Positions 2-20,907 of a stretch of 64,000 bases of DNA are shown here, piece after piece. The translations under genes and the position numbers were made by a program. Below the pieces are notes generated by a model. That model did not search any database. It had not been told where the DNA came from and saw only the letters and a list, made by a program, of their open reading frames with translations. Source of the stretch: Eubacteriales bacterium (GTDB lineage: Bacteria; Bacillota; Clostridia; Oscillospirales; CAG-272); assembly GCA_045658965.1 (NCBI GenBank), contig JAZOVZ010000099.1, positions 832 through 64,831 on the forward strand, given 5' to 3'. How positions within the stretch are numbered: the stretch's first letter is position 1; each line of letters begins with the position of its first letter.

Positions 2-595
2 TCGTATGCGACTACGTGGTTTTTACCGTTTATTGTGACGGTTGCCAACCTTGGCGGCGGAATGATCGTATTTCTGTATCTGTTCATTGCGCTGCTGGTT
101 GCCATTGCGGTGGCGCTTGCAATATTTTATATCCGCGCCATTCTCAAACGCAGGACGTTTATTGCGGCGCTGCGTGAGGTTTGTAAGAACAAATCCGCAA
201 CCATATCTGATATTCAAAAGCCGTATTTGTCAATATTTACGCAACACAAGGGTGTTGATTTCACGATAGAGCACAACGGACGCTTGTATGATTGCAAATT
301 TGTGGCAAGCGTGTTCAAAAGCTCACCCATCGCGTTTGCAGACACGGGCAAGGGCATTCGACAGGATGTGCTGCGCGTGTTTAGGGTGAACGTGCTGCAC
401 ATGAATACGCTCATAGATTTCCGCATGGAGGGCGAGGGCAAGAAGATTGTGATCGTGCTGCCCGTGCCCGAGAGAATATATGTATCGGTTGACGGATCGA
501 CACCGGGTCCCGCAGATACGGGAGAGGTATTCGGAGAGTACACTCTCTATACCGCAACCGGATTCTTGGGAGCGTTGGAGCGAGATATTTTGTGA
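2..595 (+). CDS. Hypothetical membrane protein, probably 5'-truncated by the window edge
   Basis: The frame of ORF 35..595 stays open back to position 2. A hydrophobic helix (MIVFLYLFIALLVAIAVALAIFYI) precedes a soluble domain. Confidence 0.7.
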   Translation, partial: SYATTWFLPFIVTVANLGGGMIVFLYLFIALLVAIAVALAIFYIRAILKRRTFIAALREVCKNKSATISDIQKPYLSIFTQHKGVDFTIEHNGRLYDCKFVASVFKSSPIAFADTGKGIRQDVLRVFRVNVLHMNTLIDFRMEGEGKKIVIVLPVPERIYVSVDGSTPGPADTGEVFGEYTLYTATGFLGALERDIL

Positions 596-603
596 GATGT
601 TAG

Positions 604-628
604 GTAACAGGGGACGGTTCTCTGTTAC
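604..628 (+). repeat. Hairpin cassette-boundary repeat, copy 1 (GTAACAGGGGACGGTTCTCTGTTAC)
   Basis: GTAACAG/CTGTTAC inverted arms; the core GACGGTTCTCTGTTAC is identical in four intergenic copies. Confidence 0.9.
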
Positions 629-853
629 TACGGTATATGTACGAGAACGATTCGTTCTATGTCAGGAAACTTAAACTATATGATTCGATATACAAAAGGT
701 TTTGTGCTCAACGATAAAGAAATGACAGCTGAAGAATATCAAATCAAACTAATAAACGACAAGGAATATCTTTTCGTACAACACAAATCGGGAGATTATT
801 TTTACGGCGGTATAACTCCGCAATGGTATGTTTTTGAGAGGAAGGAATGGTAA
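629..853 (+). pseudogene. 5'-truncated gene fragment (C-terminus ...YTKGFVLN...HKSGDYFYGG...)
   Basis: The frame is open from the repeat to the stop at 853, with no RBS ahead of the internal ATG at 659. Its stop lies 1 nt before the next gene's ATG. Confidence 0.55.
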
Positions 854-854
854 A

Positions 855-1451
855 ATGAAAAACAAAAATAGCGTAGAGCAGTATTTTAATCAAAAAGATT
901 TTTCGATATTAGAAATAGTTTTAATAATCATAGCTGTTATTTCTCTGACCGTAGCCACGTTCGTACAAGGCGGAGGTCCTATAGGTCTTCCTATTTTGAT
1001 GCTTAGCATTATCGTCATTTGTGTTTATCGTTCTTTCAAAATCAAAGATACCGAAATCGATCAAACGCTAAAAAGAATCATACAAGACAATAAAATCGAG
1101 TGTTCTGAAAATAGTATTCAATGTTATGAACTAAAAGGCATGCTAACAAAAAGAAGAAAGGATGGAAAGTATATTTCTTCGAACTATTATATTACGAATA
1201 TTATCTTTTCATCAGAAGAGACTCTTTTTCATATCTACGTCATCGATTTAATTAAACAATCTGTAGAAGCAGTTACCCATAGTACAAAGTGTACTGAAAA
1301 AATCACTCTGATCGAGGAAAAAATCAAGACCAATTCCGGATTAGCTCACGTAGCTCACCTTAAAATAGATGATGCATTCGTAATTCCTGTCACGCTCAAT
1401 GAATACAGAACATCTCAATTAGTACAAAAAATTTGCGAGATACATAAATAA
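855..1451 (+). CDS. Hypothetical membrane protein with two N-terminal TM helices
   Basis: ORF track 828..1451; ATG at 855 follows GAAGGAA; AT-rich; two hydrophobic segments. Confidence 0.8.
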   Translation: MKNKNSVEQYFNQKDFSILEIVLIIIAVISLTVATFVQGGGPIGLPILMLSIIVICVYRSFKIKDTEIDQTLKRIIQDNKIECSENSIQCYELKGMLTKRRKDGKYISSNYYITNIIFSSEETLFHIYVIDLIKQSVEAVTHSTKCTEKITLIEEKIKTNSGLAHVAHLKIDDAFVIPVTLNEYRTSQLVQKICEIHK

Positions 1452-1462
1452 ATACATAAAAA

Positions 1463-1488
1463 GTAACAGGGGGACGGTTCTCTGTTAC
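1463..1488 (+). repeat. Hairpin cassette-boundary repeat, copy 2
   Basis: GTAACAGGGGGACGGTTCTCTGTTAC, 11 nt after the stop of the upstream gene. Confidence 0.9.
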
Positions 1489-1598
1489 CCCCTTCGAAGG
1501 TGTTGACTATTCCGACTCTTTACAATCATTGATGCAATATCGGCAGAGTAACTAAAGCCGCCGATCATTCGACGACTACTATACTGAGGAGGTTACCA

Positions 1599-2513
1599 AT
1601 GGAATATGTACTCACAACCTCGGCGCTGACGAAGACTTATCGAAAGTTTGAAGCATTGAGGGATTTAACCATGCACATTCCCAAAGGATCAATTTACGGC
1701 TTTGTGGGAAGAAATGGAGCGGGTAAGACCACGCTTATCCGCGTCATTTGTGGATTGCAAGAGCCAACAAGCGGTGAATATATGCTTTATGGCATATCAA
1801 ATAAAAGTAGAGAAATAACAAAAGCAAGGCATAGAATGGGAGCGGTAGTGGAAACTCCGTCTATCTATCTTGATATGACCGCAGAAGACAATCTCCGCCA
1901 ACAGGCACTTGTTCTTGGTCTGCCCAACTACAAGAGCATTCCCGAAATCTTGAAGCTCGTAGGACTTGAAAATACGGGGAAAAAGAAAGCTCGTCATTTC
2001 TCGCTCGGTATGAAGCAACGACTTGGAATTGCAATCGCGCTGATCGGGAACCCTGACTTCATTGTTCTTGATGAGCCAATCAACGGTCTTGATCCGCAGG
2101 GTATTGTGGAAATCAGAGAGCTTATCTTAAAGCTCAATCACGAGCACTGCATTACCGTGTTGATTTCAAGCCATATTCTCGGTGAGCTTTCCAAGCTTGC
2201 AACGCATTATGGCTTTATCGAAAAAGGTCGCATTGTAAAAGAGATCAGTGCAACTGAACTTGAGGCTGCTTGTCGCAAATGCACGAGGGTAAAAGTCAGC
2301 GATACAAAAGTACTTGCGAGTGTGCTTGACGAGTTGGCATTGGAGTATGAAATCGTAACCGATACCACGGCAATTATTTACGGCGATACCACTCTGTCCG
2401 CCCTTGCGTTAGCTCTTGCAAAAGAAGACTGTGAATTGATCTCCTCAAATGAGCAGGACGAAAACCTTGAAACGTATTTTATCAAACTGATCGGAGGTGG
2501 AGAGCATGTATAA
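1599..2513 (+). CDS. ABC transporter ATP-binding protein (BcrA/lantibiotic-immunity-like exporter)
   Basis: Walker A GRNGAGKTT, signature FSLGMKQRL, Walker B IVLDEP, SSH H-loop; GAGGAGG RBS. Confidence 0.92.
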   Translation: MEYVLTTSALTKTYRKFEALRDLTMHIPKGSIYGFVGRNGAGKTTLIRVICGLQEPTSGEYMLYGISNKSREITKARHRMGAVVETPSIYLDMTAEDNLRQQALVLGLPNYKSIPEILKLVGLENTGKKKARHFSLGMKQRLGIAIALIGNPDFIVLDEPINGLDPQGIVEIRELILKLNHEHCITVLISSHILGELSKLATHYGFIEKGRIVKEISATELEAACRKCTRVKVSDTKVLASVLDELALEYEIVTDTTAIIYGDTTLSALALALAKEDCELISSNEQDENLETYFIKLIGGGEHV

Positions 2514-3393
2514 TCTTCTTCGCTCCGGATTTTTCAGATATACGCATAGTACGGTGTTTTGGGTGTGCACGGTATTGACCGCTGTTTTCGCCCTGTTGTT
2601 CTCATGGAATATATACGCTTCTGCGGAATTGAACGAGGTTTGGTTTGTATTCGGAACGATGCCGCTTTCGATTTTGATCACGTTCATAATCGGTAATGAA
2701 TCCTCAAAATGCATTCGTAATAAAATCCCGACAGGATACACAAGAACACAAATTTATCTCTCGGAATTGATTTTAGCCAACATGTTTGTTGTGTTTTTAT
2801 TCTCCGTATTTCTTGTTTTCTCGATCGTGCTCAATATTCGATTGCTTCCGCACATTCCGTTAAAGCTTGCTTTGCAAACGGTTTTCGGCTTTCTATGCTC
2901 TGCGCTCCTTTTTGCCAACGTGTTTGCCACTATGACGTGCATCGTTTCCCATAAAACAATTTCGATCGTCATAGGACTTGCTTTGATCATTGCGCTGTAT
3001 CTTCCTTGCACAGGCGTTTCATTATTGTTGGATGAGGAGGAGTTTTTACAGGTGGGTACGTTTGAAAACGACGTGTGGGTGGAATATGAAGAAAAGAATC
3101 CGCGCTATGTGGATGAGCCGCAGCGTTCGTTGCTTATGTTTTACGATAAAGTCAATCCGTACAGCCAACGCATCTCCTATGATGATATACTGCGTCCTTT
3201 TCTGTTTGATGACGAGGCATGGGAAAGAGCCAAGCAGGCAACCGCTAATACAGTAGGAGATGCATTTCTCAAGAGAGAAATATCCGAAGACGAGCAAGTG
3301 TTTCTAAACACCACACCTTTTGCGACCATTGCGCTGATTCCTATATTTGTTCTTACCGGATGGCTTGTTTTTCGTAAGAAATCTTTTCAGTGA
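2506..3393 (+). CDS. ABC-2-type transporter permease
   Basis: About six TM helices, an 'IRNKIPTGYTRTQIYLS' loop and a large extracellular loop. Overlaps the ATPase stop; GGAGG RBS. Confidence 0.85.
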   Translation: MYNLLRSGFFRYTHSTVFWVCTVLTAVFALLFSWNIYASAELNEVWFVFGTMPLSILITFIIGNESSKCIRNKIPTGYTRTQIYLSELILANMFVVFLFSVFLVFSIVLNIRLLPHIPLKLALQTVFGFLCSALLFANVFATMTCIVSHKTISIVIGLALIIALYLPCTGVSLLLDEEEFLQVGTFENDVWVEYEEKNPRYVDEPQRSLLMFYDKVNPYSQRISYDDILRPFLFDDEAWERAKQATANTVGDAFLKREISEDEQVFLNTTPFATIALIPIFVLTGWLVFRKKSFQ

Positions 3394-3409
3394 GGGGCGA
3401 GGAGGTTAA

Positions 3410-3442
3410 GTGAAACGGGGACGGTTCTCTGTTACACACTTA
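3410..3442 (+). repeat. Hairpin cassette-boundary repeat, copy 3 (degenerate left arm)
   Basis: GTGAAACGGGGACGGTTCTCTGTTACACACTTA; core intact. Confidence 0.85.
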
Positions 3443-3491
3443 AAAGTTAGTACTTACGCAACAAAAATAATAACAAAGGAGCAATAACAAA

Positions 3492-4235
3492 ATGAAAAGC
3501 AAACACATTCAAAATATCTTGCTACTATTTGTTTGTAGCATTATAATACTCACTACAACTGCATGCGCAAACGAAGCAGATTCCCCCACGCAGACCACTG
3601 ATTCAACGCATGATATAACAACTGATATTACAAACGGCGAAACAGAACAACAATCTTCAGACTCTACAACCGAACAGGTCGATGAAGTCAACGCAATCCT
3701 TGCCGATCTGAACCACGACGGAACAGACGATAAAATTGTCATTACTTATGATGATGAGCAAAAAAGTTCTGCAACCATTCAGGTGATGAACGGTATAGAT
3801 AATTCGGAGTTGATGTCGGACACACTCATGCTTGATGGGGATAAAATTGGTGCATACTACCTTCAGGTAGGCAAGGACGGTTTTCGCGACAGTCTTGTAT
3901 CTTGGCATTATGAATATTTGGAAGACGGAAAATTATATTTCTATTACAGTGTTTTTAACTATGAACCGGATGGCAAGATTACGTATAGTGCTCGCGGCGG
4001 CGACACCTTTAATGTATCAAATAAAGGTTCAGCCATAAGAGGAGGCAAAGCTTTCTTGGTAATGATAAAAAAACTCCAAGATAACATCGATGCTTCTTGT
4101 ATTGACTATAACGGCTATCTGTTACTTGATAACCAAGGAGATAGCATATTGATCAGCACAGCGGAAAATATGCTGACTCCTACAGAGCTTATGTTTGAAT
4201 TGGAGGATTTCGTCATTGATTCCAACGCGGAATAA
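3492..4235 (+). CDS. Hypothetical lipoprotein
   Basis: Signal peptide with lipobox LTTTAC, T/D/E-rich linker, DxNxDG calcium-loop-like motif (ADLNHDGTDD); AAGGAG RBS. Confidence 0.85.
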   Translation: MKSKHIQNILLLFVCSIIILTTTACANEADSPTQTTDSTHDITTDITNGETEQQSSDSTTEQVDEVNAILADLNHDGTDDKIVITYDDEQKSSATIQVMNGIDNSELMSDTLMLDGDKIGAYYLQVGKDGFRDSLVSWHYEYLEDGKLYFYYSVFNYEPDGKITYSARGGDTFNVSNKGSAIRGGKAFLVMIKKLQDNIDASCIDYNGYLLLDNQGDSILISTAENMLTPTELMFELEDFVIDSNAE

Positions 4236-4240
4236 CTTTA

Positions 4241-4272
4241 GTAACAGGAGACGGTTCTCTGTTACACACTTA
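4241..4272 (+). repeat. Hairpin cassette-boundary repeat, copy 4
   Basis: GTAACAGGAGACGGTTCTCTGTTACACACTTA, 5 nt after the lipoprotein stop. Confidence 0.9.
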
Positions 4273-4275
4273 TAT

Positions 4276-4310
4276 GATAAAAGAGGTCGGTTAGTCCGAC
4301 CTCTTTTATC
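4276..4310. terminator. Bidirectional intrinsic terminator
   Basis: GATAAAAGAGGTCGG-ttagt-CCGACCTCTTTTATC inverted repeat between convergent genes. Confidence 0.85.
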
Positions 4311-4318
4311 GTGTTCCC

Positions 4319-4918
4319 TTATGCTCTTGTAATAATACTGATCCCTGCGGGGGAGATGCCGGTCTGCTCGTAGACAATGGCATTGATCTGCGCAAGCGCG
4401 GCTGCGCTCAGCTCGCCCTCGTGCTGCACCACGATGCTGACGGTCTCACCGCTGATAACCGCCACGCACTGCGCGTATCCCTTGGTCTTGATCAGCGATT
4501 CGATCTTTGCCTCGTTTTCCATCTCTGCGGCGATCTGTCTGATCTCGGCAACCGCCTCAGCCTTGACCTGATCGGTGGCGTTGTCGTTATCTACCACGGA
4601 ATTGAGCACCTCAAGTGCCTCGTCACGCGCCTTTTGTCTGGAGACCTGCACGCTGCTGAAGTAGGAACTCGCATCCGCAGACGTACTGTTCTGATCGCCC
4701 GTGCTCGAGCCCGTGCCCAGCGTGGTGCCGTAGTTGGTGTTCATGCCCGCGCTCTGATCGTAATTGAAGGAATCATCCTTGGTGTCCCCTGCAAAGAAGA
4801 TCCAGTTGACATATACCGCAAGACCGATCATGATGACCGCGCCGGCAATGATCAGGTTGCGCTTGCCCATTTTCTTGAAGAAATCGCCTATGGTATTGAT
4901 TACCTTTTTGAAGTTCAT
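4319..4918 (-). CDS. spoIIIAH: Stage III sporulation protein AH
   Basis: N-terminal TM, 'YFSSVQVSRQKARD', 'IESLIKTKGY'; last gene of the spoIIIA operon. Confidence 0.9.
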   Translation of the reverse strand: MNFKKVINTIGDFFKKMGKRNLIIAGAVIMIGLAVYVNWIFFAGDTKDDSFNYDQSAGMNTNYGTTLGTGSSTGDQNSTSADASSYFSSVQVSRQKARDEALEVLNSVVDNDNATDQVKAEAVAEIRQIAAEMENEAKIESLIKTKGYAQCVAVISGETVSIVVQHEGELSAAALAQINAIVYEQTGISPAGISIITRA

Positions 4919-4949
4919 ATGTAAGCCCTCCGTTTTTGTTTTACGCTAC

Positions 4950-4978
4950 ATTGTATTAAGCACTGCGCGAGAATATGC
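4950..4978 (-). promoter_or_regulatory. Candidate internal sporulation-sigma (SigE-like) promoter for spoIIIAH
   Basis: Minus strand GCATATT-14 nt-AATACAAT in the 65 bp AG/AH gap; same geometry as the spoIIIAA promoter. Confidence 0.5.
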
Positions 4979-4983
4979 CTGCT

Positions 4984-5535
4984 TTATCCGTTTTGTGCAC
5001 CGCTGACGTGAATTTTGTTTGTCCCAATGCCAAACGCCGCACTCACCAAAGCCGTCAGCTCGTTTTGCACGGCAGGGTCGGCACCGCCCTGGCATACAAT
5101 GCCCACGCCCGCAATTCCCGGTTGCTTTTTCATCAGCAAAATAGGGCTCTGTGCACTTCCCGCACCCACGATCACATAGCTTTCCTCCCACGTATAGCTG
5201 TCCCCGCCCGTTTTGCTTTCCAGATCACGGGCGTACACGTACTCGTATCCGCCGGACAGCGTGACCACAACCTGCACCTTGCCAACGCCCTGTACCTCGG
5301 CACACAGCGCAGCAATCTCACGCGAAAGCTCTTGCCTGTACGCCTGCAGCTCGCTTTGCTCGTCTGTCACGGTCGCGGTATTCTTCTGCGCACCCTTGCG
5401 GGCAGGCAGATCAAAGCTCCCCACCACCAAAAGCCCCAAGCCCACGATGGCACCCAGCACCACGATCCACAGCTTGCCGCTTTTTTTCATTTGCCCGACA
5501 GTACCCGATATTTCCGAAACACCGTTTGAATACAT
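4984..5535 (-). CDS. spoIIIAG: Stage III sporulation protein AG
   Basis: 'VQGVGKVQVVVTL', 'PGIAGVGIVCQGGADP', 'NKIHV'; operon position. Confidence 0.88.
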   Translation of the reverse strand: MYSNGVSEISGTVGQMKKSGKLWIVVLGAIVGLGLLVVGSFDLPARKGAQKNTATVTDEQSELQAYRQELSREIAALCAEVQGVGKVQVVVTLSGGYEYVYARDLESKTGGDSYTWEESYVIVGAGSAQSPILLMKKQPGIAGVGIVCQGGADPAVQNELTALVSAAFGIGTNKIHVSGAQNG

Positions 5536-5543
5536 ACCCTCTC

Positions 5544-5993
5544 CTATTCCAAAACCACCTTACATTTGCAATCCAAAAGTCCTTCCACGTATGCAATGAT
5601 GGGATCGGGATCGCGCCAGATCGCCTTGCCCGAAAGCAGCAGCGTTACCTGCGACACTCCGCCATCCTCGCCCCATTCCACCAAAATGCGGCACTGCGCG
5701 GGCGGCAAACCCTGCTCGCGCTCCAAAAGCACTTGCAGCTGCCCGACCACCAAAGCATCCGAAAATTGCTCGTAATCCTGCTGTTCCTGCTGCTCATTTT
5801 GCCACGCCTCGGGAATCTCCCAAGCCCCCTGCCCCACGGCATGCATAAGGCTCATGACGGGCGAGATCAGCAGCGCGATGACGCAAAGGCTGCAGAGCAG
5901 CTTTGCGTGCTGCATAGCACTCTCGGGCACTAAGGTACACACCAGCGCGACCAACACCGCCGCCAGAGCAAGACTGTATAAATATCCTCCCAT
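5544..5993 (-). CDS. spoIIIAF: Stage III sporulation protein AF (divergent)
   Basis: Two N-terminal TMs ('LVPESAMQHAKLLCSLCVIALLISP'); lies between AE and AG. Confidence 0.75.
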   Translation of the reverse strand: MGGYLYSLALAAVLVALVCTLVPESAMQHAKLLCSLCVIALLISPVMSLMHAVGQGAWEIPEAWQNEQQEQQDYEQFSDALVVGQLQVLLEREQGLPPAQCRILVEWGEDGGVSQVTLLLSGKAIWRDPDPIIAYVEGLLDCKCKVVLE

Positions 5994-5999
5994 GCGCCG

Positions 6000-7139
6000 T
6001 CACCCAATCCAAGCCGCGGCACTTGCCGCAAACGCACCTACGGCTATGATAAACACCGTCGTGCACATGGCAACCGCAGCAGCCATATAGCCAAACAGGC
6101 TGCTCGCCTCGCCAAGCACCGCGCTCTCGGGTGCACATCCAAGCAGATGCGCAAGCGTCGCACCGAGATCCAGCAGCGTGCGCAGAGCAAGCATTTGGAG
6201 CAGCACGGGCAGGCAAGTCAGAAACAAAAGGATCACCCCGCACCCACCCGCAAGCCCGCGCAGCATGCCCACGCCTGCGGCAAGCGTATCAAGCGAACCC
6301 GAAAGCGCACCGCCCACCACGGGGATCATCTGTCCGATGGCGTAGCGGCCGCTGCGCATGGCAAGGCTATCCGCGCGCGAGGCAAGCAGGCTTTGCGCAG
6401 ACAGACAAAGCGAGAGCAACAGCGTCAGCACGCCCAGCACCGCGGTATAAGTCTTTTTGAGAAATGCCGATATTTTGGAAAGATCCACACCCGATTCCAA
6501 TATGCCCGGCAGTGACATTGCCATGCAGCTGCCGAACAGGGGCGGCGCGATATTCGCACACACGCTGCCGCATACGTTCAGCCCCACCGCAAGCGTGGCG
6601 TTGCCCACCGTGGCACGCGTCACGTTTCCGCCCATGATATAGAGCGCACTCATCAAGGGCATGATCCCGCCCATCAGCACGCGCAACGAGGAAAAATACC
6701 CCACCATAGAATCGACCGCGGCATACCCCGCACCCGCCACCGCACCGAACAAGCAAAGCCGCGGCGCAAGGCTTGCCCACGGTAGGCTTTGCGCCTTGCC
6801 GACAGAGCGCATCAGACCGCACAAAAGGATCAATGCGCAAATCGAGGCAAGCAATCCCCCGCTTTGCCCGAATTGCAGTCCGTACACCTGCAAAAGAAGA
6901 CCCAAAAGCCCCGAAAACGAGGTCATTTGCGCAAATGCGTCGCGCACCTCTGCCACGTCACGGGAAAACAGCCCATCCGGCAAAATGGCAGCAAGCGTTT
7001 CGGGAATGCACTCCTCAAGCGCTGCGTATTGCTCGGGCAGCGTGCTGTAGTCAACGCTCGTTGGCTCTGCCGATGCGCCAAAGCACAGAAAAGCCACCGC
7101 CGCCAGCGCAATCACAACCCCAAACAACCGTTTTTTCAC
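6000..7139 (-). CDS. spoIIIAE: Stage III sporulation protein AE
   Basis: Signal peptide plus polytopic membrane protein with 'IPVVGGALS'; operon position. Confidence 0.9.
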   Translation of the reverse strand: MKKRLFGVVIALAAVAFLCFGASAEPTSVDYSTLPEQYAALEECIPETLAAILPDGLFSRDVAEVRDAFAQMTSFSGLLGLLLQVYGLQFGQSGGLLASICALILLCGLMRSVGKAQSLPWASLAPRLCLFGAVAGAGYAAVDSMVGYFSSLRVLMGGIMPLMSALYIMGGNVTRATVGNATLAVGLNVCGSVCANIAPPLFGSCMAMSLPGILESGVDLSKISAFLKKTYTAVLGVLTLLLSLCLSAQSLLASRADSLAMRSGRYAIGQMIPVVGGALSGSLDTLAAGVGMLRGLAGGCGVILLFLTCLPVLLQMLALRTLLDLGATLAHLLGCAPESAVLGEASSLFGYMAAAVAMCTTVFIIAVGAFAASAAAWIG

Positions 7140-7519
7140 GTCAACAGCTCCTTTGTCATGCCCAGTATTTCGGTGATGAGCGGCAGCGCCTGCAGCACCA
7201 CCGCAATTTTGCCCGCGCCCTCCAGCGCAGTTGCCAAGCCCGCTTCACCAAAGTCGCGGCAAATGCCCGCCCCCAAGGCAGACAGCAAGGTGAGCCCCAA
7301 CCCCGAAAGCAAAATTTCCCCGTGTGCCGTGGGCAGACTTTGCTCGGACAAGCTTTTGATCATATCCACGATGGGCTGCGCTGCGCCAAGCACCGTAAAA
7401 AAGATCAGAACCGTGCCCGCGGCACGCACGGGCAGCACCATTTCGGCTTTATATTGCTTGAGCACCCACACAGCGGCAAGGCACAGCATGGCAATGCCGC
7501 AGATCTTGAGCATATCCAT
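7136..7519 (-). CDS. spoIIIAD: Stage III sporulation protein AD
   Basis: 'ICRDFGEAGLATALEGAGKI..LQALP' motif. Confidence 0.9.
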   Translation of the reverse strand: MDMLKICGIAMLCLAAVWVLKQYKAEMVLPVRAAGTVLIFFTVLGAAQPIVDMIKSLSEQSLPTAHGEILLSGLGLTLLSALGAGICRDFGEAGLATALEGAGKIAVVLQALPLITEILGMTKELLT

Positions 7520-7522
7520 TTG

Positions 7523-7717
7523 TCAAAAGCCAAAGGTGGCATACACCAGCGAAAAAAGCTCGCCGATCTGCTCCACCAGCATGAGCAGCACCACCACAAT
7601 GCCCGCAATCGTGACTAAGGTTGCCTGCTCGTCGCGCCCCGATTTATTTAAGATCTGCGTGGCGACCGAGACCAAAAGGCCCACGCCCGCCACCTTTAAG
7701 ATAAGACCTACTTCCAT
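7523..7717 (-). CDS. spoIIIAC: Stage III sporulation protein AC
   Basis: 64 aa MEVGLILKVAGVGLLVSVATQILNKSGRDEQA..., typical of SpoIIIAC. Confidence 0.92.
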   Translation of the reverse strand: MEVGLILKVAGVGLLVSVATQILNKSGRDEQATLVTIAGIVVVLLMLVEQIGELFSLVYATFGF

Positions 7718-7719
7718 AG

Positions 7720-8202
7720 TTACCAAAGAAGGATCACCGCGCCCGCAGCGCACAGCATCCATATCGCTCCGTTCGTTTTTGCTCTTGCAGGCAGCTCATT
7801 TTCAAGCTGCGTGCGTTTTTCGCGCAAAAGCTCGATGTAATAATCACACCGCTTGATCTGCTCGTCACGAAAGCCACCGCCCAGCCCCGCGCCAAAGCTT
7901 TGCAGCACGCGATAAGTCTCGGGATCCAGATAGGCTTTGACGTGCGGCAGGAGTGCCTCAATCGACTCTACCTGCCCCGGGCACCTGCAATCGGCAAGGA
8001 TGCCCTTATCCATTGTGAGCATGATCTGCTCTACGGGCATGGCGTAACAATCGATGCGCCCCTTGATATAAAAGATCAGCGAGATCAGCGCGTCGTGCAC
8101 CCGAAGCCGCGCACGCTCGTACCGTGCAGCTCCCACGGCAAGACCCGCACCGCTGGCAAGCACCAGCATAGCCCCCACGATCTTACAGACAAGCATCCGC
8201 AC
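7720..8202 (-). CDS. spoIIIAB: Stage III sporulation protein AB
   Basis: N- and C-terminal TMs, 'FGAGLGGGFRDEQIKRC'; operon position. Confidence 0.85.
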   Translation of the reverse strand: MRMLVCKIVGAMLVLASGAGLAVGAARYERARLRVHDALISLIFYIKGRIDCYAMPVEQIMLTMDKGILADCRCPGQVESIEALLPHVKAYLDPETYRVLQSFGAGLGGGFRDEQIKRCDYYIELLREKRTQLENELPARAKTNGAIWMLCAAGAVILLW

Positions 8203-9115
8203 TCTCCCAATCGGTCACATGGTAGGAAAAGCCACTCTCGCGCCTTGTGATGCCCACGTACGCACCGAACATTTTGCAATCATGCAAAAGGCGCAGACCC
8301 GTGCGGCACAAGAGTTCCTCAACAGACGAAGCGTGCGCACTCGCCACCAAGGGCACACCGCAGTTTTGCACCGAGGCAAGCGCGAGCGCCTCTTGATAAT
8401 CCCCGATCTCATCGCAGATCATAACCTGCGCGTTCATGGTGCGGCAGGCGATCTGCACGCCAAGACAGCGCGGATACCCCACCAGCACGTCAAGACAGAG
8501 TGCCGCGCCCGTTTGCAAAAACGGCATTTCTCCGCGCGTGTCAATGACCACCACGCGCCGTGGGTCTTCACCCGAGGCAAGCGCGCATGCCACACCGCGC
8601 AGCAGCGTGGTCTTACCGACGCCGGGCGGCGAATAGATCAGCACGCCCTTGGTATAGCGGAATTTCTGCATGAGATTGCAGATCTCCCTGCCGCTCACGG
8701 CAAAATGCGCGGGAATACGGATGCACAAACCCGATACGTCATACACCCCGATCACCTCGCCCTGCTCGCAAGCAGCCCTACCGCACACACCTACGCGCAC
8801 GCCGCCGTCCAGCGTCAGATACCCTTCTGCAATGGTGGGAGCGTGGGAATACAGCGATCCGCCGCACATGCGCGTCAAGGTCGCGGTCATTTCCTGCGCG
8901 CTAAGCACCGTGCGCAACAAAATATTGCGCCCGCCTGCCACCACGCTGGCGCATCTGCCCGTATGCAGCCGTATCTCCTCAATATGCTCGGGCAAATGCC
9001 CCGCATACAGCTCGGATACAAGCCGCTCAGGGAGCATCCTGATCACACTCGGCGGCAGATACGTGCGCTTCTCCACACTCGCGTCCTCTGCCCTGTTGAC
9101 CATCACGCTGCGCAT
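8183..9115 (-). CDS. spoIIIAA: Stage III sporulation protein AA (AAA ATPase)
   Basis: 'EEIRL', 'GYLTLDGGVRVGVCG', Walker A SPPGVGKTTLLR, 'ICDEIG'. Confidence 0.93.
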   Translation of the reverse strand: MRSVMVNRAEDASVEKRTYLPPSVIRMLPERLVSELYAGHLPEHIEEIRLHTGRCASVVAGGRNILLRTVLSAQEMTATLTRMCGGSLYSHAPTIAEGYLTLDGGVRVGVCGRAACEQGEVIGVYDVSGLCIRIPAHFAVSGREICNLMQKFRYTKGVLIYSPPGVGKTTLLRGVACALASGEDPRRVVVIDTRGEMPFLQTGAALCLDVLVGYPRCLGVQIACRTMNAQVMICDEIGDYQEALALASVQNCGVPLVASAHASSVEELLCRTGLRLLHDCKMFGAYVGITRRESGFSYHVTDWESADACL

Positions 9116-9137
9116 ATTGCTCACCACCTTTCACAGC

Positions 9138-9166
9138 AATATATGCACACTTGTCCGCAAGTATGC
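9138..9166 (-). promoter_or_regulatory. SigE-type promoter of the spoIIIA operon
   Basis: Minus strand GCATACT-14 nt-CATATATT just upstream of the RBS; spoIIIA is SigE-dependent in B. subtilis. Confidence 0.75.
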
Positions 9167-9200
9167 GCAACACGTCCATCGGTCGCGTGTCCACCCATCG

Positions 9201-9359
9201 GTAGGGCGGGGCTTTACGTCCCGCCGCCGATTTTGCAATCCGTCTACCCGGTAGGGTGGGCTTTACGTCCCGCCGCCGATTACGCAATCCGTCTGCCGGT
9301 AGGGCGGGGCTTTACGTCCCGCCGCCCGTCACGCAATCCGTCCGCCGGTAGGGCGGGGC
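9201..9359 (+). repeat. Tandem GTAG-type REP array (three full units plus one partial, period 48-50 bp)
   Basis: GTAG-GGCGGG-gctttacgt-CCCGCC units start at 9201, 9251, 9299 and 9348. Confidence 0.88.
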
Positions 9360-9368
9360 AAACAAACA

Positions 9369-9397
9369 AAAAAGCCCCATCTTTGATGGAGCTTTTT
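9369..9397 (-). terminator. Intrinsic terminator
   Basis: AAAAAGCcCCATC-ttt-GATGGaGCTTTTT downstream of gene 9406..9864. Confidence 0.7.
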
Positions 9398-9405
9398 CTC
9401 TTGAT

Positions 9406-9864
9406 TCATTTTTTCGTCTTCACCCCGCGGACGCGGACGGTGAAGGTCTTTGAGCATCTTGGGCAACGCACGGTATGCTTGCCCTTTTCTCTGGGCAATC
9501 TCAGGGTTGCCTTGCACTTCGGGCAATCGCGGAACACGTGCGTGTCGGTGTCCTTATTGCCGTTATGTCTGCGGAACAGGCAACGCACCTTATATTCAAA
9601 GGCGCACCATTTGGCGTTTTCGGCTTGTCTTTTATAGATCTTACGTGAAAAGGTGCGTGTGGTCGACCAGACGCACAGCCCGATCGATACGGCGTACAGG
9701 CAAAACGAGATAATATTGCCCGCCAAGGTTCTGCCGCACAAAAGCGACACAAGCACCGAAATGCACAGCAGCACGATTGCCGCTACCGACAAGACGCGGT
9801 TCAGTCTGTCCGTACCGTAGCGTCCGTACATGAATTTATAAAGCTTTTCTTGAAAATTTGCCAT
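9406..9864 (-). CDS. Conserved clostridial membrane protein with C-terminal Zn ribbon
   Basis: 'FMYGRYGTD' N-terminus, two TMs, CPKC...CPRC. Confidence 0.85.
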   Translation of the reverse strand: MANFQEKLYKFMYGRYGTDRLNRVLSVAAIVLLCISVLVSLLCGRTLAGNIISFCLYAVSIGLCVWSTTRTFSRKIYKRQAENAKWCAFEYKVRCLFRRHNGNKDTDTHVFRDCPKCKATLRLPREKGKHTVRCPRCSKTFTVRVRGVKTKK

Positions 9865-19350: not shown

Positions 19351-20907
19351 TTATTCAGTTGTTGTGTCTGTGGTTTGCTCGGGCGCAGACTCCGCTTGTT
19401 TCTTTTTGCGTTTTTTGGCATGTTTGACCAGTATGACGATCAGCACCACGATCGACGCAGTAGAAATACCGATCACCGCAAGCACGAACAGCACACCTAT
19501 GACAATGAGGCCGATCACCGCAAGCATGAACAGCGCGCCTATAACGATGAAGCCGATTGCCAAGTACGTGTACGCCGTGACCACGCGTTCGGGGTTTTCC
19601 ACCTCGCACAAGGTAAAGATCAGATCCTCGTCGGGCAAGCCGTCCAAGTGAATCTTGTATCCCGCGTCGGTCTTTGTCCACTCCTTTGGTGCAATGCTGT
19701 ACTCTCCCTTGCGCTCCTTGACCATGACGTAGGGCGTGTTGATATAGATATCCAGCGTGCCGAACTCGGTCCATGTTGAAGCGGGCGTCAAAAAATACTC
19801 ATAGGCATAAGTAGGCTGATCATATCTGCCGTTAATATGGGGATACAGAGGAGCTGTGACCGTGTTGGTCAGCCGCTCGCCGGGTGCGAGCGTGATCTCG
19901 TACGCATACCATTGCAATAGATGCTCCGAAACATCCCAATTGACACCGCCGTACAGACCGAGTGCTCTTTCAGAGTACTCGAGCTGTGCTACAACTGCAT
20001 TAAACCAATCGTGCGCTGCCACACCCGACGCATGATCGTAATATTGCATGGCAAGCGCGCCAAAGGTGGTGCTGGTTTTGTCTACCACACTCATGCTGCC
20101 CTCGATCTCGGTTTCCAAAGAGCCGTTTTCATAGAACTTCCATTCCAACTCTCCAACATCCTCGCCAAAAACATACACCGTGATCTCGGCATCAGACGTG
20201 TGCACGGATGCCCAGCCCGCATGTCCGTTCTCATCCGAATGGTAGCCGCCCAGATTTTCCAACATAAAGCGCGTATGTTCAAAAGCACCGTCAAAATACG
20301 TTGCCGCACGGGCAGAGCGGTATGTCTGCTTATCCACACTTATGCGGTAGGTATAGACATGCACAGGCAGATCGTAGGTCAAAAAGCTATCCGTGCGGTA
20401 ATCGTTATGCAGCTTTGCCATTTCCTCCGCGGGATCAAAGTTGTACAGATAGTGATCCCAATAGCTGTGTCGCACGGTGGTCTGTACCGCTGCACCGTTT
20501 ACCTGCGCGCCGTAATTGGACGCATTATTGGGCGTGACGTATTCTCCCTTCTCGGAGTCGTAAATTTCGCCGTAATAGGGAGTGATCCCAAACGGAAATA
20601 GCAAATTTGCCGTAACCGTCATATCACTTGGATTGTAAAAAGTATATTCTGCCGTCACGCTTGCATCGTAGGCAAGATAGTCCTCGATGCTGCCGTAAAG
20701 ATTGCTTGGAAACGCCCCTATATCAAAGGTCAGCGTTTCGTGCTCCACCACCAAGGGACATTCCCCTTCCGTGGTCAGCACCCCCGACGTGCTCACGCCC
20801 TCCCAATAAGATTGCGCGGAATTGGCAGATGTGGGGAGGATCGTAAGGGCGCACAGCAGTACGCATATGGCGGAAACGAAACATATTTTACGCGTTTGTT
20901 TGCTCAT
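19351..20907 (-). CDS. Membrane-anchored surface protein, DUF4424-like (paralog 3)
   Basis: Signal peptide; 'VEHETLTFDI', 'AEYTFYNPSD..LLFPFG', 'YFLTPASTW..FGTLDI'; C-terminal TM plus basic tail. ATG at 20907 follows GGAGGA. Confidence 0.75.
   Translation of the reverse strand: MSKQTRKICFVSAICVLLCALTILPTSANSAQSYWEGVSTSGVLTTEGECPLVVEHETLTFDIGAFPSNLYGSIEDYLAYDASVTAEYTFYNPSDMTVTANLLFPFGITPYYGEIYDSEKGEYVTPNNASNYGAQVNGAAVQTTVRHSYWDHYLYNFDPAEEMAKLHNDYRTDSFLTYDLPVHVYTYRISVDKQTYRSARAATYFDGAFEHTRFMLENLGGYHSDENGHAGWASVHTSDAEITVYVFGEDVGELEWKFYENGSLETEIEGSMSVVDKTSTTFGALAMQYYDHASGVAAHDWFNAVVAQLEYSERALGLYGGVNWDVSEHLLQWYAYEITLAPGERLTNTVTAPLYPHINGRYDQPTYAYEYFLTPASTWTEFGTLDIYINTPYVMVKERKGEYSIAPKEWTKTDAGYKIHLDGLPDEDLIFTLCEVENPERVVTAYTYLAIGFIVIGALFMLAVIGLIVIGVLFVLAVIGISTASIVVLIVILVKHAKKRKKKQAESAPEQTTDTTTE

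Follow-up and report, generated by a model that had tools for sequence, protein, structure and literature searches.

The stretch of DNA analyzed here, called the window throughout, covers 64,000 nucleotides of contig JAZOVZ010000099.1 (C99 in our numbering, positions 832-64831) from the genome of a Eubacteriales bacterium of the CAG-272 lineage. Near its start, four short hairpins lie between small groups of accessory genes, and the original prediction took them to be attC-like sites of an undescribed system for stacking genes. Our analysis points to a different identity. With a probability of roughly 0.85, they are repeats of the repetitive extragenic palindrome (REP) or terminal inverted repeat (TIR) type that belong to a TIRYT-like REP-associated tyrosine transposase (RAYT), a domesticated transposase of the HUH/Y1 kind whose gene lies on contig C37 of the same assembly. 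This source genome (G000) is assembled as 2.73 Mb in 110 contigs, with a G + C (GC) content of 52.6%; other genomes, contigs, and loci carry our own handles beginning with G, C, and L. Contig C99 extends 831 b upstream of the window, and positions in the array are window coordinates unless marked C99, the C99 coordinate being the window coordinate plus 831. The relatives searched comprised 40 genomes: 15 others of the genus, nine of other genera in the same family, and 16 of other families in the same order, G037 being among the last.

Within the window, the 16-mer GACGGTTCTCTGTTAC occurs exactly four times, at 613, 1473, 3420, and 4250, always on the plus strand, and was absent from 100 dinucleotide-preserving shuffles even when up to two mismatches were allowed. 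The arms GTAACAG and CTGTTAC are found in copies 1, 2, and 4; the left arm of copy 3 reads GTGAAAC, so that its local hairpin is degenerate. Each copy follows the stop codon of a co-oriented open reading frame (ORF) by between 5 and 16 nt (Table 1). As RNA, the copies have folds of −10.0 to −13.9 kcal/mol that include G-U pairs, which are impossible on the opposite strand; copy 1 reaches −13.9 kcal/mol as RNA and −5.3 as DNA, and copy 2 reaches −12.1 and −6.2, respectively. A T-run is missing on the 3′ side of all four, none of the five terminator-like sites returned by a consensus scan coincides with a copy, and a permissive Rfam search (E up to 1) of the repeat-bearing loci L001, L002, and L007 matched none of the hairpins. 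The GC content, taken per 300 nt, is 0.32-0.46 over 601-4350 compared with 0.48-0.64 over 4351-9450, and the AT-rich stretch with the hairpins measures 3.7 kb. The original prediction had thus read the locus correctly in several respects: co-oriented hairpins just behind stop codons, an invariant 16-bp right part next to a left arm that varies, the lack of a U-tract that sets them apart from ordinary terminators, unrelated and co-oriented AT-rich modules between them, and an array that stops at the terminator before spoIIIAH.

These copies are members of a dispersed family with the conserved core GGGGACGGTTCTC and variable arms (GTAACA/TGTTAC, AGCACA/TGTGCA, and others). At no more than one mismatch, the core occurs 22 times in the source genome on nine contigs, with nine copies on C26, four on C99, three on C17, and one each on C18, C29, C37, C50, C52, and C89; the C89 copy, which has no arms, may be a chance occurrence. 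A scan of the genome at three mismatches gave 197 matches compared with 234 for a reversed-core control and was excluded from these counts. The family takes the form of simple hairpins with differing arms, composite clusters that recur at several loci, and inverted doublets. The doublets are found on C17, C26, and C37, and their DNA folds have energies of −16 and −14.3 kcal/mol (z about −3.1). The nine copies on C26 lie in another AT-rich patch and are antisense to the flanking genes, and clusters of mixed orientation were also seen in G011 (C84: + − − + +) and G014. Whether copies gather in arrays had been proposed as a check: clusters do exist, alongside singlets and inverted doublets, and their orientation is mixed.

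To assess conservation of the fold, 96 distinct copies from the 16 genus genomes and G037 were aligned without gaps. Across the 9-bp stem, 80.4% of cells pair compared with 70.7% in shuffled alignments, and cells in which both sides have changed number 70 compared with 37.9; neither value was reached in any of 500 shuffles, a figure that is not a probability since the copies are related. Control alignments that had been slid out of register gave 26-57% pairing. Individual stem positions exchange whole base pairs, such as pair 9-29 (AU in 43 copies, CG in 27) and pair 8-30 (UA in 59, GC in 13), and conservation in the loop and inner stem is 90% or higher. The hairpin, which is 25-26 nt long, is a sequence-specific and structure-conserving element with a covarying stem and a strand-asymmetric fold, and it is no ordinary terminator.

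A tandem half-repeat, consisting of the left arm plus GGGGAC(G), stands immediately 5′ of a full copy at eight loci (contigs C26 and C29 of the source genome and loci L015, L041, L062, L063, L064, and L069). Both arm subtypes are represented, so the break point recurs within the loop. The two regions of the source genome C29:440-620 and C26:23220-23400 are diverged copies of one backbone flank beside a repeat with a half-repeat, and they stem either from a duplication or from the presence of a second strain in the assembly.

A candidate enzyme for these repeats is encoded in the same genome. A Pfam search for Y1_Tnp across the source genome identified C37:1916-2248 and, in addition, a 30-residue match at the end of C80. 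The corresponding ORF on C37 (1880-2629, 249 aa) matches Y1_Tnp at 1.1e-16 and the NF047646 model, named ‘REP-associated tyrosine transposase’, at 81.9 bits (cut-off 80); against the NCBIfam model for IS200 it scores 16.4 bits (cut-off 55). The sole match of the protein in the PDB is E. coli TnpA-REP (4ER8), which is weak (E 0.45) and aligns the HUH and YIxxNPV motifs. Among 12 homologues, all of which match both Y1_Tnp and NF047646, the residues H60, H62, Y119, N123, and P124 are invariant, as is an SxRQxxRLxG motif. A tail of about 110 residues follows the core, with a weak match to HTH_23 in seven of the 12 homologues (best E 0.0095, all below cut-off). In the source genome, the full gene on C37 is the only one, accompanied by a 3′ remnant on C26 and the match at the end of C80, and the genus genomes have between zero and two matches to the enzyme each.

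The repeat and the gene are physically associated. On C37, an inverted doublet of the repeat begins 12 nt 3′ of the stop codon of the enzyme gene, and the remnant on C26, which is 59% identical over residues 204-249, adjoins a doublet of the same kind inside the AT-rich patch. The gene-proximal arm GGGGACAG, present in the source genome and G004 and in the C26 and C17 doublets, fits the consensus GGGGWSAS; the dispersed core GGGGACGG differs from it at one position. The repeat also adjoins the enzyme gene in G004, G013, G001, G007, and G037. A link between such repeats and HUH/Y1 (RAYT-like) transposases in Firmicutes, raised in the original prediction, is real: the same repeat lies beside the RAYT-type gene of C37.

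The distributions of the two partners agree with this association. The exact 16-mer GGGGACGGTTCTCTGT was present in all 15 other genus genomes, none of the nine genomes from other genera, and one of the 16 from other families (G037), so that the core is found in all 16 genus genomes when the source is included; its reversed control had no match in any relative searched. Of the 15 other genus genomes, eight have homologues of the enzyme, which are full length in G001, G004, G007 (one there being 95% identical to the C37 protein), and G013 and fragmentary in G002, G003, G005, and G011; none was found in the nine genomes from other genera, and of the 16 again only G037 has one, at 55% identity. 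Among these 40 relatives, enzyme and repeat are confined to the same lineages and adjoin in several genomes, which was the co-occurrence suggested as a check. On a wider scale, the 19-mer ACAGGGGACGGTTCTCTGT occurs on at least 119 stretches of a collection of species-representative genomes, where the chance expectation is estimated at about 4. Among the matches listed, the taxa include Lachnospiraceae, Blautia, Acutalibacteraceae, Oscillospiraceae, Faecousia, Eubacterium, Syntrophomonadaceae, Anaerovoracaceae, and Peptococcaceae, as well as a few metagenome-assembled genomes (MAGs) under the labels Atribacterota, Desulfovibrio, or Flexilinea. In eight of 124 loci retrieved by the 19-mer alone, the repeat directly adjoins a homologue of the C37 enzyme; these homologues are 33-74% identical, four are fragments, and two loci (L092 and L179) have repeats on both sides of the gene. 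The 19-mer was also seen on five stretches (L201-L205) of four IMG/VR viral contigs, with no Y1 homologue found beside it on those stretches. Literature searches with four core strings returned only unrelated papers among the matches listed, and supplementary files may hold the core.

In E. coli TnpA-REP and in IS608, the folded top strand is bound in single-stranded DNA, nicked, and rejoined. By analogy, the C37 enzyme would recognize a folded top strand in the same way, with the core ACAGGGGACGGTTCTCTGT as its putative cognate site, and nicking and rejoining may have spread and rearranged the repeats over evolutionary time. The copies in the window occupy intergenic gaps of an AT-rich, rapidly changing, and probably horizontally acquired island between the membrane protein gene and the terminator of the spoIIIA operon, and they mark some of its rearrangement junctions. 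Their position at module junctions most likely has two components, namely that dispensable intergenic DNA tolerates repeats, and that short identical sequences or nick sites give rise to occasional recombination or deletion. Such events might include deletion beside a repeat, and recombination between copies or between conserved flanks that contain them. The island itself is most likely a variable patch of AT-rich accessory genes and not a dedicated platform for cassette capture. Transcription of the co-oriented genes would include the repeats, and the resulting RNA hairpins could buffer the 3′ ends of mRNAs in a secondary role.

Several observations weigh against assigning the hairpins to this enzyme. 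Copy numbers are low, with between one and 19 exact 16-mers per genome. The classical GTAG tag is missing, and neither GTAG nor CGTC is present in the units (GTAACAG...CTGTTAC or AGCACAG...CTGTGCA). Searches with the C37 protein did not find the enzyme in G006, G008, G009, G010, G012, G014, and G015, all of which carry repeats and have a completeness of 71-96%; the repeats may be relics in these seven of the 15 genomes. On C37, a contig of 2.8 kb, repeats are present on the 3′ side of the gene only, and the 1.5 kb upstream has none. Truncated genes at two repeats and the half-repeat duplications at eight loci indicate that passive residence alone is an insufficient explanation. Finally, Quentin et al. 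2018 (PMC6006769) found no REP-like structures beside genes of the subclass to which the enzyme would belong.

The alternative nearest to the original prediction is a cassette system resembling integrons or IS200/IS605 elements, in which two co-oriented hairpins act as left and right ends or as attC-like sites and the Y1 enzyme excises the intervening genes as single-stranded circles and reinserts them at another hairpin, so that arrays would build up; we consider it unlikely. A related and equally unlikely reading is a shuffling process in this genus, in which co-oriented copies act as interchangeable ends and the Y1 enzyme excises or deletes DNA between or beside two of them, or pastes it next to a further copy; the cut would be made either within the loop, behind GGGGAC(G), or behind GTTAC at the 3′ foot. 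Were it true, the island at the spoIIIAH flank would be a case of hairpin-guided, single-strand gene shuffling, an HUH-run analogue of the integron. Differences between sister species speak for this view. Homology of the source genome to G012 covers C99:223-1469 and 5071-5900, ending at the first repeat and resuming at the last, and the genes inside differ: 3.6 kb with three modules in the source genome (the 64-aa remnant with the 207-aa membrane protein; the ABC ATPase with its permease; the lipoprotein), and 1.3 kb with two other modules and three repeats in G012. Likewise, different genes occupy the interval between the same extended flanks, REP+RCACTTAAAAGTTA and REP+RCACTTATATGAT, in the source genome and G008. 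Copy 1, where homology to G012 stops, abuts on its 3′ side a truncated MerR-like gene: G007:C21 retains the full-length counterpart (366 aa, L054:3287-4387; MerR_1 6.2e-15), and the last third of it aligns with the 64-aa ORF at 89%. The same is seen in G012, where a repeat copy adjoins a truncated membrane gene whose intact form is present in G003 and G008. Copy 2 separates the first module from an ABC pair unique to the source genome, for which the 15 other genus genomes gave no DNA match except 94 b at 78% in G006. Copy 4 has orthologues in G005, G007, G008, and G012, and G003 has no repeat at the terminator site. Across the spoIIIAH flanks of the source genome, G005, G007, G008, and G012, all 12 repeat copies are co-oriented. 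Metagenome contigs, placed at 88% likeness to the window and possibly derived from relatives, diverge from it at repeat edges: at 602 beside copy 1 and, for those with the ABC genes, at 3420 in copy 3, with further contigs joining a full repeat at 3417 to different upstream DNA. The half-repeats, with their recurrent break after GGGGAC(G) at eight loci, fit the same scheme. Against it stands the behavior of the genes once they are elsewhere. The first module recurs at 83-95% DNA identity in G007:C21, G008:C5, G013:C216, and G008:C128, and no repeat (at up to two mismatches) was found at the three of these loci that were fetched or at the five other sites of the 399-aa gene; moreover, G008 stacks five AT-rich genes with no intervening repeat. 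Orientation is mixed in G011:C84 and reversed relative to the genes on C26, and where sister species share co-oriented copies at a single locus, these reflect common descent and not separate events. The placed metagenome contigs contained no joints, and the sequencing runs were uninformative on excision (each of the 20 runs listed contained at most 0.15 of the sampled words, and the contigs from four of them measured only 100-840 b and showed no joints). The proposal that repeats delimit modules gained and lost stands in so far as gene content differs in sister species, and is unsupported where relocated genes travel without the repeat.

Genome-wide tests are likewise unfavorable to cassettes. 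In the source genome, 14 of the 22 copies are located inside AT-rich islands or no more than 500 b from one. Such islands make up 9.7% of the genome, but these copies represent three loci, and only three of 103 AT-rich islands bear a repeat; in other taxa, the GC content at the repeats of 92 loci shifts locally by −0.014, compared with −0.002 at random positions. A general link between the repeat and AT-rich DNA is rejected on these grounds. Across the genus, breakpoints of homology initially appeared enriched, with 44 of 272 within 20 nt of a repeat compared with 8.6 expected from random positions. Under a random intergenic null and with matches of at least 500 bp, this enrichment is gone (10 compared with 11.8 expected within 20 nt, and 19 compared with 16.7 within 30 nt), and it is rejected; the excess with matches of at least 200 bp (37 compared with 18.9) is attributed to repeated composite repeat clusters, and the sample is biased because its loci were picked for holding repeats or compared genes. 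Comparing the locus among sister species, as the original prediction had advised, revealed varying gene content, the breakpoints across the genus are no nearer to repeats than random intergenic positions, and attC-like stacking of genes through the hairpins is unsupported for a repeat that is dispersed, of mixed orientation, and missing from relocated genes. A further explanation would place the hairpins entirely at the RNA level, as stabilizers of 3′ ends or partial terminators with no present link to a Y1 enzyme, and this we judge highly improbable. The sense orientation of the window copies shortly past stop codons speaks for it, as do the strength of their RNA folds, the G-U pairs confined to the top strand, and the seven repeat-bearing genus genomes with no detected enzyme. 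However, the loop is conserved as well as the stem across families and phyla, the same core stands by the enzyme gene in distant lineages, the repeat on C26 is antisense to adjacent genes, and no Rfam family was matched. A role in RNA is compatible with repeats of a TIRYT-like RAYT as a secondary effect and is not an alternative to them.

Table 1. Repeat copies, genes, and other features at the start of the window (window coordinates).
Feature	Position	Strand	Basis or remark
399-aa multi-pass membrane protein gene, 3′ part	2..595	+	Gene start at C99:227
Repeat copy 1, GTAACAGGGGACGGTTCTCTGTTAC	604..628	+	8 nt past stop of 399-aa membrane protein gene
64-aa ORF, 3′ remnant of MerR-family regulator gene	659..853	+	Homology to G007:C21 gene
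207-aa membrane protein, without known family	828..1451	+	ORF and profile searches
Repeat copy 2	1463..1488	+	26 nt, loop with one additional G; 11 nt past stop of 207-aa gene
ABC transporter ATP-binding protein	1599..2513	+	PF00005 3.1e-29; nearest is lantibiotic-protection type
ABC-2 type permease	2497..3393	+	PF12679 1.5e-06, 28.1 bits (cut-off 27.2); overlaps end of ATPase gene
Repeat copy 3	3410..3435	+	Core and right arm intact; 16 nt past permease stop
247-aa lipoprotein, without known family	3492..4235	+	Signal peptide, lipobox cysteine by reading
Repeat copy 4	4241..4265	+	Loop variant GGAGAC; 5 nt past lipoprotein stop, adjoins terminator
GC-rich hairpin between A-run and T-run	4279..4307	.	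Direct reading; absent from consensus-scan list
spoIIIAH	4319..4918	-	PF12685 1.3e-40; conserved backbone gene, convergent, bounds island

The genes of the island show the variability expected of accessory DNA next to a stable backbone. The spoIIIAH gene is present in all 16 genus genomes at 85-100% identity, and the hairpin at 4279-4307, which is conserved in G003, G005, G008, and G012, is likely to be a two-way terminator common to the array and spoIIIAH. The 399-aa membrane protein gene occurs in seven of the 16 genus genomes and adjoins spoIIIAH only in the source genome and G012, and the lipoprotein is found at 87% identity in the island of G008 with differing neighbors. The ABC ATPase scores 229.8 bits against TIGR03740, under the cut-off of 309.75. 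Most island ORFs encode lipoproteins or membrane proteins that belong to no known family. A possible role as immunity islands was considered and rejected, as a Pfam search of 45 island ORFs identified 12 families by one member each, none of them related to immunity; they include HTH_3, MerR, and one RHS_repeat (1.1e-09). A motif check for RHS_repeat flagged L073:105-1019 (G010) and L081:1489-2517 (G015); the latter had no Pfam match when scanned alone, so the RHS_repeat match is probably the lipoprotein of G010.

Searches of contig C99 for Y1 transposases, tyrosine recombinases, and resolvases found no match, which bears out the earlier statement that no recombinase is present in the window for these three classes, DDE transposases lying outside the search. 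The source genome has seven Phage_integrase matches, none of them on C99, and since this contig ends 831 b upstream of the window an integrase gene beyond its end is possible. A resolvase search of the whole genome gave no match, and a search for IS110 gave a single match below cut-off on a different contig. An IS608-like TTAC target preceding the junctions in the intact gene was also considered and dropped, because both junction examples need additional unmatched bases.

Other repeats were encountered in the same genome. A second palindrome family has the core GGGGACTGTCCCC and arms GATACC/TGTGAC, with about 17-20 copies in the source genome on contigs C2, C29, C32, C44, C58, C62, C66, C73, C80, C95, C100, and C109, in surroundings of normal GC content (0.49-0.55). 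A paralogue of the C37 enzyme with 60% identity (G007:C83 and G001:C2; loci L036 and L037) has palindromes of this family on both sides, and in the source genome the enzyme of this second family might be represented only by the 30-residue Y1 match at the end of C80. A third motif, CTTCCCC-N3-GGGGACGGCTTTT, known only from a noisy scan at three mismatches, has about 20 copies in the source genome, many of them within 300 b of contig ends; sites include C48:103, C88:43-769, C91:27, C95:977-1309, C96:252, C97:252 and 15445, C102:6594, and C108:15913-16781. On contig C26, a match to the Gut-1 RNA (RF01706) at 20289-20364 (L001:2290-2365) scores 52.7 bits with a gathering score of 50.

The outcome reassigns a candidate for an undescribed gene-capture system to the little-studied TIRYT, or subclass 2.1, branch of REP-associated Y1 enzymes. 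The 19-nt core is common to many families of Clostridia and to a few MAGs with labels of other phyla. Such breadth is unusual among REP-type repeats, and the core provides a ready substrate for biochemistry. The few junctions with truncated genes or half-repeat duplications are a hint of repeat involvement in local rearrangement, which is testable in vitro.

Comparison with known systems helps to place the repeats. Integron attC sites are 57-141 nt long and conserved in structure while variable in sequence. This one array resembles integrons and clusters of attC sites lacking an integrase (CALIN) in its co-oriented hairpin sites past stop codons between unrelated, promoter-poor genes; unlike them, it has a 25-nt hairpin with a conserved loop, sites that are dispersed and often inverted or doubled, no IntI-type integrase nearby, and genes that move without the sites. 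The orphan immunity gene arrays of Bacteroidales, which are associated with a recombinase, are a formal analogue of accessory gene stacks separated by repeats. The insertion sequence (IS) IS608, of the IS200/IS605 family, has imperfect top-strand hairpins with G-T pairs and carries co-oriented hairpins at both ends of the element, from which the shuffling process considered above takes its formal analogy. The HUH/Y1 catalytic core and the imperfect top-strand hairpins are shared with this family; the difference lies in one full gene and one remnant instead of multiple near-identical copies, and in a score against the IS200 model well under its cut-off. The likeness to the REP/RAYT systems of E. 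coli and Pseudomonas (REPtrons, REPINs) is closer. Here too a single-copy domesticated Y1 transposase is accompanied by cognate extragenic palindromes, with inverted doublets that form long hairpins, copies past stop codons, and confinement of enzyme and repeat to the same lineage. The gene number is low and unlike that of an IS, the enzyme has the HUH and Y...NP motifs and is distinct from IS200, and the extragenic palindromes of 20-40 nt are dispersed with inverted doublets, at low copy number. Unlike these systems, there is no GTAG tag, the copies number tens and not hundreds, the enzyme has an additional, putative helix-turn-helix (HTH) tail, and the core, far from being species-specific, is conserved between families and even phyla.

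The closest counterpart is the TIRYT group. As set out by Di Nocera et al. 2013 (PMC3733652), TIRYTs or TIRtrons are RAYT-like genes between inverted repeats that share GGGGWSAS, and their repeat families, of moderate abundance, comprise singles, dimers, and clusters; the main text has no occurrence of Firmicutes or Clostridia. In Quentin et al. 2018 (PMC6006769), TIRYT is equated with TnpA-Y1 subclass 2.1, which has a C-terminal HTH-like extension (Bac_DnaA_C, HTH_23, or HTH_28). The system is filed here under TIRYT and subclass 2.1 because of the GGGGACAG arm that fits GGGGWSAS and the C-terminal tail, and the enzyme fits this type by its sequence features, an assignment made by features and not by phylogeny. 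It is thus of a described type, and not the undescribed system suggested by the original prediction. It probably also corresponds to RAYT Group 1 of Bertels et al. 2017 (PMC5581495), a group that, according to that paper, is also found in Clostridia and has 16-mers of about 12 occurrences. In common with TIRYT, there is an enzyme of about 250 aa with Y1/HUH features, a Y...NP motif, and a C-terminal tail that may be HTH-like; inverted repeats lie by the gene with a GGGGWSAS proximal arm; gene copies are few; and the repeats are moderately abundant as singles, dimers, and clusters. Unlike TIRYT and subclass 2.1 as so far described, the dispersed copies form short, true hairpins in which the stem covaries and a core of 13-19 nt is conserved, and the host is an uncultured genus of Clostridia. 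In contrast to the 2018 classification (PMC6006769), such enzymes in Clostridia do have true hairpin repeats.

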